Assembly: GCA_044432745.1 (NCBI GenBank)
Contig: JAWXUH010000006.1
Coordinates: 1,375 to 65,374, forward strand
Length of the DNA stretch: 64,000 nt
Origin: a bacterium
GTDB taxonomy: Bacteria; Bacillota_I; Bacilli_A; RF39; UBA660
Direction of reading: 5' to 3'
Of this stretch, positions 33,845 through 36,214 are shown piece after piece. The first letter of the stretch is position 1. Every line of letters starts with the position of its first letter. The notes under the pieces were generated by a model. It was not told where the DNA came from. It saw only the letters and a list, made by a program, of their open reading frames with translations, and did not search any database. The translations under genes were made by a program, and so were the position numbers.

Positions 33845-33872
33845 AAAAATCAATTTTAAAATTGATTTTTAT
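33845..33872. terminator. Bidirectional terminator (aaatcaatttt aaaattgattt).
   Basis: Perfect inverted repeat with T-runs. Confidence 0.6.
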
Positions 33873-35236
33873 TTTTGTTTACTATTATCAAGTTCATCTT
33901 TATTTGGATAATTATAATAATCAATCCATGAAGTTAATAATTTTTTGAAAAATTTATCATCTTTACTTTCAAGACAAGTATTTATTATTTCTTCAAAAGA
34001 ATGATGATTAATTATGTGTATAAAATCGTGTTCGAAAGAACCTTTTTTTTCTTCCATATATTTTAAGTTATATATAGCTAATTTATTTACTCCGTTTATA
34101 ATTTCTGAAAATAAATTATAAAACAAATCAATATTGTTTGTATATATATTTTTTAACATACTTATATACATAGTTAAAGATTCATCAATTGAATATTGAT
34201 AAGACATTAATTCTTCGTAATTAAAATTATAATACTCTAATACTTCATGCATACTTAAATCTTCTTCTTCTTGAATAGTATTTAATAATTTTGTATAGTT
34301 ACTAAACTCTATTAATCTTTCATCATTACTATCAGCTAGGTTTTCTAATAATTGTTCTGATACTTCGTTCATTGTTATATCAAAGTTTTCTTCCATTATA
34401 TTTCTTGTTGTATCATCTATTGTTTCCATAAAGTTACTATAATTTGTATATAATTGATCAAAATTAATATCATATTTTTTAATTATCTCAAATAAATTTT
34501 TATCAAATTTATTTACTACAAAAGTATTAGTATTTTTTAGAGGTTGATATAAATAACTAATATTGAATTTTTTTCCATTTATTAATATATTTGATAAATA
34601 CTGATATATATAATAACAATAATTTATATCAATTAAACTTGAATCATGTAAATTCTTTTCTTCTTTAAAATTATCCTTATAAGTCCATAGTTCTTCTTCA
34701 AAAAAAGTTGTTAAATCTATATCGTTTAATTCTTCAAAATTTTCTGATAATTCACTATATTCATTACAATAATCTTTAACATTATATGATAGTAGGGTAT
34801 TTAAAGTTTTTATATAATATTCATATAAACCTTTATTGTCATTTATGCTATCTAAATCATTTTTTTCAATATAATTAAATTTAGAAATCTTATTAATGTA
34901 CTCAGGTACTTTAATATTTACTATATTTATTTTATCTAATCTATAACTAATTACTACCATAGAATGTATTAAATAATTTATATCAGTATCACTTAAATTA
35001 TCTATATCAGTATCACTTTTAATATCTTTTATTCTTTCCATTACTAATTTGTCTTGATCATGTATGGCAGCTTTATACACATCAGAGAAGGCCAATCTTA
35101 TTATATATTTAAAATTATCTTCTTTTTTTAATTCTTTAATTGCATCATCAATATTATCTTCTAATATTATATTAACTTTCTCAGCTGCAAAACTTCTTAA
35201 CTTATCATTTATGTTGTAAAACGTTATTTCACTCAT
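33869..35236 (-). CDS. Large acidic hypothetical protein (~455 aa). Operon partner of the stand-alone AAA+ gene.
   Basis: ORF 33869-35248. Preferred start MSEIT has RBS ggaggt (revcomp of 35243-35248). Asp/Glu/Asn/Tyr-rich. No known motif. Confidence 0.6.
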   Translation of the reverse strand: MSEITFYNINDKLRSFAAEKVNIILEDNIDDAIKELKKEDNFKYIIRLAFSDVYKAAIHDQDKLVMERIKDIKSDTDIDNLSDTDINYLIHSMVVISYRLDKINIVNIKVPEYINKISKFNYIEKNDLDSINDNKGLYEYYIKTLNTLLSYNVKDYCNEYSELSENFEELNDIDLTTFFEEELWTYKDNFKEEKNLHDSSLIDINYCYYIYQYLSNILINGKKFNISYLYQPLKNTNTFVVNKFDKNLFEIIKKYDINFDQLYTNYSNFMETIDDTTRNIMEENFDITMNEVSEQLLENLADSNDERLIEFSNYTKLLNTIQEEEDLSMHEVLEYYNFNYEELMSYQYSIDESLTMYISMLKNIYTNNIDLFYNLFSEIINGVNKLAIYNLKYMEEKKGSFEHDFIHIINHHSFEEIINTCLESKDDKFFKKLLTSWIDYYNYPNKDELDNSKQK

Positions 35237-35296
35237 ATATACCTCCAAATTTCAAACTATTATATCTTATTAAATATAAAAATGCAAAAAAAAAGA

Positions 35297-36214
35297 TTAA
35301 CTTATATCTTCTAAGTTAACTCTTTCCATTATTATTATGTCATTAAATACTTGTTTGAATCTTTCAATCTCTTTTACTTTAGAGTCAGGATATATATTTT
35401 TTGCATTACATACCGCTTTATAGAAATGTTTACAAGTTACTTCAGGACTATTATCAAAAGCAGCGTATGTAAAAGCATTTGATACTAAGTTTAAACAGAT
35501 ATCTGGATATCTACTTGCAACTTCATATACTCTTTTATATTCATCTGTCATTTCTACTATGAAAGCCATAAATTTCTCTGTTATATATTCAGGGTAATTA
35601 ATCTTAATTCCCATTTTTTTCTCAGTTTTAGGTATAGTTCCTAGTAGTATTTTAACTACTGTTGGTTTATCTGCTTCTGCAACATCAATTTTTTGGAATC
35701 TTCTTAAGAATGCTCTATCTCTTAAAATATATCTTTCATATTCCTCAGTAGTAGTAGCACCAATCATTTTTATAGTACCACGGTCTAGTCCAGCTTTTAA
35801 CATATTTGCAAAGTCCATACCACCATCTTGATTTATAAGTAGGTGAGTTTCATCTATAAAAACTATCGTTTTATCAAGTTCGCTTAACTCTTTAATTAAC
35901 ATATCCATTCTATTTTCAGTCTGTCCATCACTTACTGTTGATCCTATTAAACTTGTTATATTTATTTTTACTAAATTTAATCCTTTTAATGCATCAGGTA
36001 CCATATTATTTTTAATTCTATATGCAACACCTTCTACTATAGCAGTTTTACCTATACCAGGTTTACCTACAAGTAGGGCACTTTTTTCTGGAGTTAATAA
36101 ACTTAACATACATTCTTTAATTTCTTGATCTCTTGCTATTGCTGGATCAGTTACATATTCTTTGTTTATTAAATCTTCTCCGTATCTTTCTATTATACTT
36201 ACTTTTGTATCCAT
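35297..36214 (-). CDS. Stand-alone AAA+ ATPase corresponding to the ClpB/ClpC D1 module only. It has no N-domain, M-domain or D2.
   Basis: [21 protein letters not shown] (Walker A), VFIDETH (Walker B) and [27 protein letters not shown] match Clp D1 residue-for-residue. ORF 35297-36226, with the start taken at MDTK. Confidence 0.7.

Follow-up and report, generated by a model that had tools for sequence, protein, structure and literature searches.

A predicted D1-only Clp/Hsp100-type ATPase gene beside a putative species-specific orphan gene in an RF39 genome

Two neighbouring genes on the minus strand of contig JAWXUH010000006.1 (GenBank assembly GCA_044432745.1; GTDB lineage Bacillota_I, Bacilli_A, RF39, UBA660) were analysed within a stretch of 64,000 nucleotides (nt), hereafter the window, one of them encoding an AAA+ ATPase of 305 amino acids (aa) and the other an acidic protein of 455 aa. 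They are best explained, with a probability of about 70%, as two adjacent and evolutionarily unrelated genes, namely a conserved ATPase reduced to the first AAA+ module (D1) of the Clp/Hsp100 proteins and a species-specific orphan gene. An earlier reading made from the letters alone (the sequence-only reading) had taken the two for an operon; overall, its D1-only identification stood and the ATPase gene is judged functional, while the functional pairing with the acidic neighbour was not supported. What is of interest is the family itself, whose members are conserved Clp derivatives consisting of a single D1-type module that lacks the tyrosine clamp. Literature searches turned up no D1-only Hsp100 that had been described. 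All coordinates are positions within the window unless a locus is named, and they are collected in Table 1.

Identity of the ATPase and its pore loop

Both open reading frames (ORFs) were confirmed as real, on the same strand and 60 nt apart, as the sequence-only reading had stated, although the ATPase, counted from its ATG, has 305 aa and not the 306 given there. A TTG in frame at 36226 represents an alternative start, but the gene callers and the N-termini of the family favour the ATG. Residues 4-205 of the ATPase matched positions 164-372 of the NCBIfam ClpA model (E 1e-46) and positions 152-363 of the ClpB model (E 7.5e-46), and the scores fell far under the equivalog cut-offs of these full-length proteins (159.6 bits vs. 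993 for ClpA, and 156.9 vs. 1232 for ClpB) because D1 alone is present. Among the PDB sequences searched with phmmer, the best match was ClpB1 (9ip0, E 1e-41), with further matches to Hsp104, ClpB, ClpE, ClpC and ClpA, all of them to D1. Only PF00004 was found in the Pfam scan, with no match to Clp_N, ClpB_D2-small or AAA_2, and the ClpX and HslU models gave no match at E <= 1, the strong matches being all to D1. Moreover, the AlphaFold2 model built from a 33-sequence family alignment was confident (predicted local distance difference test, pLDDT, of 84; predicted template-modelling score, pTM, of 0.81). The top Foldseek matches of this model were the D1 modules of ClpC1, ClpA, ClpB and Hsp104, with query-normalised TM-scores (TMq) of 0.74-0.77 over ~270-300 columns, and its comparison with the 268-residue D1 chain 8yd1_E gave a target-normalised score (TMt) of 0.85 and a root-mean-square deviation of 2.8 A.

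The domain boundaries were read by aligning the ATPase with three ClpA proteins of full length. Its N-terminus coincides with the D1 boundary (ClpA model position 164), the N-terminal domain (N-domain) being absent, and its lid is colinear with that of ClpA, which has no middle domain (M-domain), with only short lid helices in the AlphaFold2 model and no M-domain either. The C-terminus (residue 305) falls at the junction between D1 and the second module (D2), at the onset of the first D2 helix, and D2 is absent. In particular, the C-terminal segment IERFK..F.D.I aligns with L.nLE..L...VFGQ of ClpA, and this vestige of the junction helix suggests descent by truncation from a two-ring ancestor. 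The IGF/IGL loop with which ClpA and ClpC dock onto ClpP sits in D2, and therefore the ATPase would also be devoid of it. By profile, alignment and model, the 305-aa protein is an entire class-I Clp/Hsp100 D1 module, comprising both the large and the small AAA+ subdomain. The stand-alone ClpA/B/C-type D1 without N-domain, M-domain, D2 and ClpP loop that had been proposed is thereby supported.

All the motifs quoted in the sequence-only reading were present in the translation. The ATPase motifs are Walker A (GKPGIGKT, residues 50-57), Walker B (FIDE, residues 119-122), sensor-1 (T154/T155) and the Arg fingers (R171/R172). Their conservation was counted over 269 family sequences of 300-335 aa, where the Walker A Lys appeared in every sequence, followed by the Asp-Glu of Walker B and the sensor-1 Thr (268-269 each) and the Arg-Arg pair (267-268). 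However, the match to the D1 of ClpB, which had been judged to hold almost motif for motif, breaks in pore loop 1, where the missing K-Y-R had been overlooked: V94-S95-D96 stand in its place, and the stretch (K/R)-Y-R-G-(E/D)-F-E of ClpB and ClpA, which in ClpA is the region of Y259, reads V-S-D-G-Q-T-E. An aromatic residue at the Tyr position was found in 0/269 sequences, and all three clamp residues were substituted in 269/269. Furthermore, pore loop 1 was two residues shorter in one subfamily, and the secondary D1' loop of the ATPase was shortened by 3-4 residues relative to the aligned ClpA sequences. In ClpB, the residues K250, Y251 and R252 clamp the substrate and are needed for activity, which is abolished by charge reversals (PMC6546751). 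As the clamp is replaced throughout the family, a canonical threading unfoldase is unlikely, and the unfolding role previously suggested for the ATPase is weakened.

Compared with the class-I Clp/Hsp100 proteins (ClpA, ClpB/Hsp104, ClpC/ClpC1 and ClpE), the ATPase shows the same large and small AAA+ fold, with 36-42% identity over D1, and keeps the N-terminal segment 'Y..dL...g.lDP.IgRD.EI', both Walker motifs, the GATT of sensor-1 and the 'RRFQ' Arg pair. It differs from them by the missing Clp_N, M-domain insertion, D2 and ClpP-docking loop, by the replaced K-Y-R and the shortened D1' loop, and by small lid insertions at residues ~207-212 and ~226-233. With the class-II proteins (ClpX and HslU/ClpY) it has in common a single AAA+ module, but theirs are of the D2/HCLR type with aromatic pore loops (ClpX having in addition an IGF loop), and that of the window is of the D1 type.

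Thousands of relatives of the ATPase were found in homology searches, the nearest being all ~305-335 aa long. The ratios of non-synonymous to synonymous substitution rates (dN/dS, Nei-Gojobori) against five relatives ranged from 0.06 to 0.18, with dS close to saturation. When full-length Clp proteins were searched against the 64-kb window with tblastn, the sole match was D1 itself (35474..36205), and no remnants of the N-domain, M-domain or D2 were found there. Moreover, in two loci (L035:4381-6690 and L036:8112-10415, both on the minus strand) a full-length class-I Clp ATPase of 767-769 aa lies ~1.2 kb from the D1-only gene, which belongs there to a subfamily of ~55% identity. These long proteins comprise an N-domain, a D2 and a D1 in which the pore loop is KYRG (AGTKYRGEFEER), and are 36% identical to the window ATPase over D1; the short form is thus a paralogue of its own and not a replacement.

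When one genome of each GTDB species was scanned, the short D1-only form appeared in 35 species loci (L007-L041) with 52-76% identity to the window ATPase. All of them were metagenome-assembled genomes of uncultured gut 'Bacilli', 'Tenericutes' or 'Erysipelotrichaceae', including Clostridium sp. CAG:609 and Candidatus Coprovivens, and they belong to the RF39-like reduced-genome lineage. The other matches of the scan were ordinary ClpA, 757-890 aa long if the ORF was complete and mainly from Proteobacteria. A subfamily variant (P0140) was indexed in >4600 blocks of the assembly collection, on single scaffolds of ~1.2 Mb. The D1-only family is encountered very frequently in the gut metagenomes of humans and animals, and its function matters for an abundant lineage that is uncultured. 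The neighbours of the gene across lineages comprised, among others, NUDIX, HipA_C, monogalactosyldiacylglycerol synthase, MscL/HtpG and Y-family polymerase genes, and a conserved neighbourhood was rejected as a clue to function since the neighbours vary by lineage with no consistent signal. In the P0140 genomes (L093-L096:2215-5987), htpG, a TSCPD-domain gene and mscL precede the D1-only gene and share its strand, and in CAG:609 an HSP20 gene (L004:10420-10797) lies 3.5 kb downstream of it; these non-conserved neighbours give a weak hint of a stress or chaperone neighbourhood.

The 455-aa gene and the slot downstream of the ATPase

The chance probability of a 455-codon ORF at the base composition of the window was estimated at ~1e-19. 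The G+C content at its first, second and third codon positions was 0.30, 0.17 and 0.11, its codon usage matched that of the genome, and a GGAGG precedes its ATG by 5 nt, so that the ORF is judged from its sequence to be a genuine gene. The identical protein was found in the same context in at least six sequencing runs. The G+C content of the window was ~24% throughout, and the composition was unbroken at the two genes. The protein was rich in Asp and Glu (18.7% vs. a window average of 14.9%), Asn (11.6% vs. 8.3%) and Tyr (8.4% vs. 6.1%), with 10.3% Lys and Arg, and poor in Gly, Pro and Ala. Its net charge was -38 and its isoelectric point (pI) ~4.5, but eight of the remaining window ORFs with 200 aa or more had a lower computed pI; in a genome of 24% G+C, its acidity is therefore real and unexceptional, and the Asp/Glu/Asn/Tyr richness that had been pointed out holds without setting the protein apart by its acidity. 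It was predicted to be all-alpha without transmembrane segments, and only weak, composition-driven self-matches were found in the search for internal repeats. Structure prediction, which the sequence-only reading had proposed for both proteins, succeeded for the ATPase, while the single-sequence AlphaFold2 model of the 455-aa protein (pLDDT 38.7) was too poor for a fold search.

No match to the 455-aa protein was found in Pfam, NCBIfam, PADLOC or PHROG, in line with the earlier observation that it has no recognisable domain. Likewise, none was found in a word-indexed search of 5.8 billion proteins, in a phmmer search that covered 1.84 billion representatives exhaustively, or in viral or JGI metagenome contigs. 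When it was compared with every fetched locus by phmmer and tblastn, the matches were confined to contigs of the same organism. A relationship to the four ~390-aa paralogues of the window was rejected (hhalign probability of 0.2%), and so was one to genes occupying the same slot in other genomes (299 aa in L089, 212 aa in L092 and 281 aa in CAG:609), with which no similarity was found.

Neither the five closest relatives (77-84% identity) nor the 35 species loci had the 455-aa gene beside the ATPase. Among the former, the ATPase with 84% identity (L087) was followed by a terminator hairpin and then the convergent 58-aa ORF, that with 82% (L097) by a Y-family polymerase and YolD, that with 81% (L089) by the unrelated 299-aa gene on the opposite strand and then the 58-aa ORF and thiI, those with 79% (L090/L091) by a hairpin and then the 58-aa ORF and thiI, and that with 77% (L092) by the 212-aa gene. 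At least five different genes were found downstream of the ATPase in the species loci, whose functional labels were given by eye from the sequence, without profile scans. The most frequent of them was a ~351-360-aa protein resembling NAD(P)-dependent dehydrogenases (14/35), followed by a penicillin-binding-protein-type carboxypeptidase-like protein (4/35) and a small membrane protein (3/35); loci of the CAG:609 type had a 281-aa ASCH-like protein (no Pfam match), and some of the remaining ones had opposite-strand genes. The window and L090 have a common backbone of ezrA, cysteine desulfurase, thiI, the 58-aa ORF and the convergent ATPase gene, to which the window adds the 455-aa gene in the slot between the ATPase gene and the 58-aa ORF, and three tandem ~390-aa paralogues between the desulfurase gene and thiI. 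The slot directly downstream of the ATPase was empty or held unrelated genes in L087, L089, L090, L092 and L097, and it may represent a local hotspot for gene gain.

As the acidic gene is confined to one organism, a dedicated pair is improbable; the gene-pairing survey suggested in the sequence-only reading was negative, and the pairing it had proposed is not conserved. Same-strand adjacency in a single genome is no evidence of an operon partnership, the neighbour in this case being a species-specific orphan. Such a gene resembles the known ORFan genes in variable intergenic slots in having no homologue, native codon usage and a slot that varies in relatives, and it differs from them in its unusual length and in being identical across several samples.

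Regarding transcription, a GGTGA was found 5-6 nt before the ATG of the ATPase gene, and the hairpin at its stop had a minimum free energy of -10.8 kcal/mol (z -2.7), with 5/200 shuffles folding equally well. Comparable hairpins were found directly after the ATPase stop in L087 and L090. The 455-aa gene probably has its own promoter and ribosome-binding site, judging by the motifs in the gap, and read-through from the ATPase gene is possible; these hairpin and promoter signals are weak and at the consensus level, and therefore compatible with both read-through and independent transcription. On the far side, the hairpin over the stop of the 455-aa gene lies between this gene and the convergent 58-aa ORF.

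Proposed mechanism and alternative explanations

The ATPase retains all the elements needed for ATP binding and hydrolysis in an oligomeric ring (both Walker motifs, sensor-1 and the Arg-Arg pair acting in trans) and has lost the N-domain, the M-domain, D2 with the ClpP-docking loop and the K-Y-R clamp of pore loop 1. The trans-acting Arg pair of nucleotide-binding domain 1 (NBD1) is reported to couple nucleotide binding to oligomerisation (PMC4239642). The protein may assemble into a ring or spiral and act as an ATP-driven switch or remodeller through surfaces other than a threading pore, or else modulate another AAA+ ring, and it would not be a partner of ClpP. An oligomeric ATP-driven switch, remodeller or modulator, and not a processive unfoldase, is proposed with moderate confidence from the motifs kept and lost. 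Purifying selection on the D1-only family is strong in reduced-genome gut Bacilli, and the family moves through the genome as a single gene. The all-alpha acidic orphan occupies the variable slot between the ATPase stop and the convergent block of the 58-aa ORF and thiI, and no link between its function and the ATPase was found.

Several points weigh against this explanation. The 90% cluster of the 455-aa protein (P0121) is represented by a 42-aa fragment (P0122), and for this reason both large protein searches missed the protein itself, which reveals blind spots in them. A client or adaptor specific to this species would likewise show the pattern of an orphan. Just 60 nt lie between the two genes, which are on one strand, the hairpin at the ATPase stop is weak and AT-rich, and the promoter match in the gap is a consensus match only, all of which is compatible with co-transcription. 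In addition, isolated NBD1 fragments of ClpB are poor oligomerisers. As for the non-threading mechanism, it is deduced solely from the missing pore-loop clamp. ClpB Y251A retains partial activity in vivo (PMC6546751), and the substrate could be gripped by other loops.

One alternative is a dedicated pair in one operon, with the ATPase remodelling, loading or being regulated by the acidic helical protein as a lineage-specific adaptor or client; the closeness of the genes on one strand, the stability of their arrangement (identical in the sequencing runs mentioned above) and a scan requiring G+C-rich stems, which found no terminator between them, are consistent with it. The 455-aa gene is nevertheless missing from all the relatives examined, up to those with 84% identical ATPases, at least five other genes take its place downstream over the species loci, and the AT-rich hairpin with its U9 stretch, the promoter-like site and the GGAGG in the gap argue for separate units. 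Together with the strong conservation of the ATPase family as opposed to a partner without homologue, this makes a dedicated pair distinctly improbable, and probably not what these genes are. An anti-phage defence or mobile-element cargo module, composed of an AAA+ ATPase and an effector, is very improbable: the variable, hotspot-like slot would suit it, and PADLOC gave weak matches of the ATPase to the generic TRIP13 and IetA models (E 4e-8 to 2.5e-7), but these cover the P-loop region only and are far weaker than those to the Clp D1 (1e-46). The 455-aa protein has neither PADLOC or PHROG matches nor relatives in viral contigs, the ATPase is a vertically conserved core gene, and the pair shows no compositional anomaly. 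The role of defence accessory contemplated in the sequence-only reading hence found no support, and for that of sporulation accessory the sole hint was a generic AAA match to SpoVK (6e-5).

Concerning the ATPase alone, degeneration of a full-length clpB, clpC or clpA gene would fit a match that is limited to D1 in the ClpA and ClpB models, at 159.6 bits against a cut-off of 993. The constant length of the 269 homologues, the low dN/dS and the window free of flanking Clp remnants imply that the gene is no pseudogenised fragment, and the invariant catalytic motifs, the clean domain boundaries, the confident AlphaFold2 model and the intact two-ring Clp alongside the D1-only gene in L035 and L036 argue likewise; the pseudogene reading, which the sequence-only reading had named among the findings that would refute it, is itself refuted, with a negligible probability left to it. 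It is unlikely, to a lesser degree, that the D1-only protein is a true unfoldase or disaggregase ring gripping through non-canonical loops, possibly in concert with DnaK, HtpG or small HSPs. In its favour, the motifs for ATP hydrolysis and the Arg fingers are preserved, as is E100 (aligned to ClpB E256). Moreover, htpG is found upstream in the P0140 lineage, which is very common, and HSP20 3.5 kb off in CAG:609, and the partial function of ClpB Y251A points the same way. Such a ring would, however, have to operate with the K-Y-R replaced in every family sequence, a pore loop two residues shorter in one subfamily and a D1' loop shorter than in the aligned ClpA, without an M-domain for coupling to DnaK and without D2, which is reported to be the main motor of ClpB (PMC6593972), and its chaperone neighbours are not conserved.

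Beyond the explanation of two unrelated genes, the D1-only proteins might constitute an undescribed third class of Clp/Hsp100, a single D1 ring without the pore-loop Tyr selected for a non-threading ATP-driven task, a reading put forward tentatively and with the odds against it. Within it, a regulatory or co-assembling subunit for full-length Clp and a nucleotide-gated scaffold are possibilities, and the orphan protein may have been recruited in this one species as a client or adaptor. Hsp100/Clp ATPases are textbook threading motors with either two rings (class I) or a single D2-type ring (class II), and a lone conserved D1 in genomes as small as ~1.2 Mb would show what a D1 ring is capable of without D2, M-domain, N-domain and Tyr clamp. 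Truncated Hsp100 relatives, such as human CLPB/Skd3 and the torsins (D2-like only) or Mycobacterium ClpC2 and plant ClpT (N-domain only), are precedents for single Hsp100 pieces as independent genes with specialised roles; to our knowledge, none of these is D1-only.

Features of the locus and neighbouring genes

Table 1. Coordinates of the two genes, their putative signals and neighbouring elements in the 64-kb window
Feature	Position	Strand	Basis or remark
D1-only Clp/Hsp100-type AAA+ ATPase gene (predicted)	35297..36214	-	profile, structure, family alignment, dN/dS
Species-specific orphan gene (putative), 455 aa	33869..35236	-	ORF, empty profile and homology searches, codon usage
Intergenic gap	35237..35296		60 nt
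Promoter-like TAGACA-17 nt-TAAAAT, TG before -10	36231..36259	-	upstream of ATPase; consensus match only
AT-rich hairpin over last ATPase codons and stop, then U9	35286..35323	-	intrinsic-terminator-like
Promoter-like TTTGCA-18 nt-TATAAT in the gap	35259..35288	-	consensus match only
GGAGG ribosome-binding site	35242..35246	-	5 nt upstream of the 455-aa gene ATG
AT-only hairpin and U-run over 455-aa gene stop	33839..33874	-	terminator-like; -6.8 kcal/mol, z -2.8
Slot directly downstream of ATPase	33845..35296
58-aa ORF	33668..33844	+	directly 3' of thiI, convergent
~390-aa paralogue	28823..29992	+
~390-aa paralogue	30044/30071..31234	+
~390-aa paralogue	31247..32422	+
~390-aa paralogue	40605..41741	+

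The convergent 58-aa ORF, which bears no annotation, has equivalents in L089 (3427-3603) and L090 (6964-7140), with a conserved core RNEYFNPYG.N.YSSLRE...D.THTNQ. The four paralogues of ~380-396 aa are pairwise 33-40% identical and have the motifs NCS.I...P.V, GYS.I, SYI..R and P.VRM.T in common, with no match in Pfam, PADLOC or PHROG and with tblastn matches to contigs of their own organism only. They are a second lineage-specific gene set in the same region, and at the site of the three tandem copies, between the cysteine desulfurase gene and thiI, L090 contains only an 87-aa ORF.

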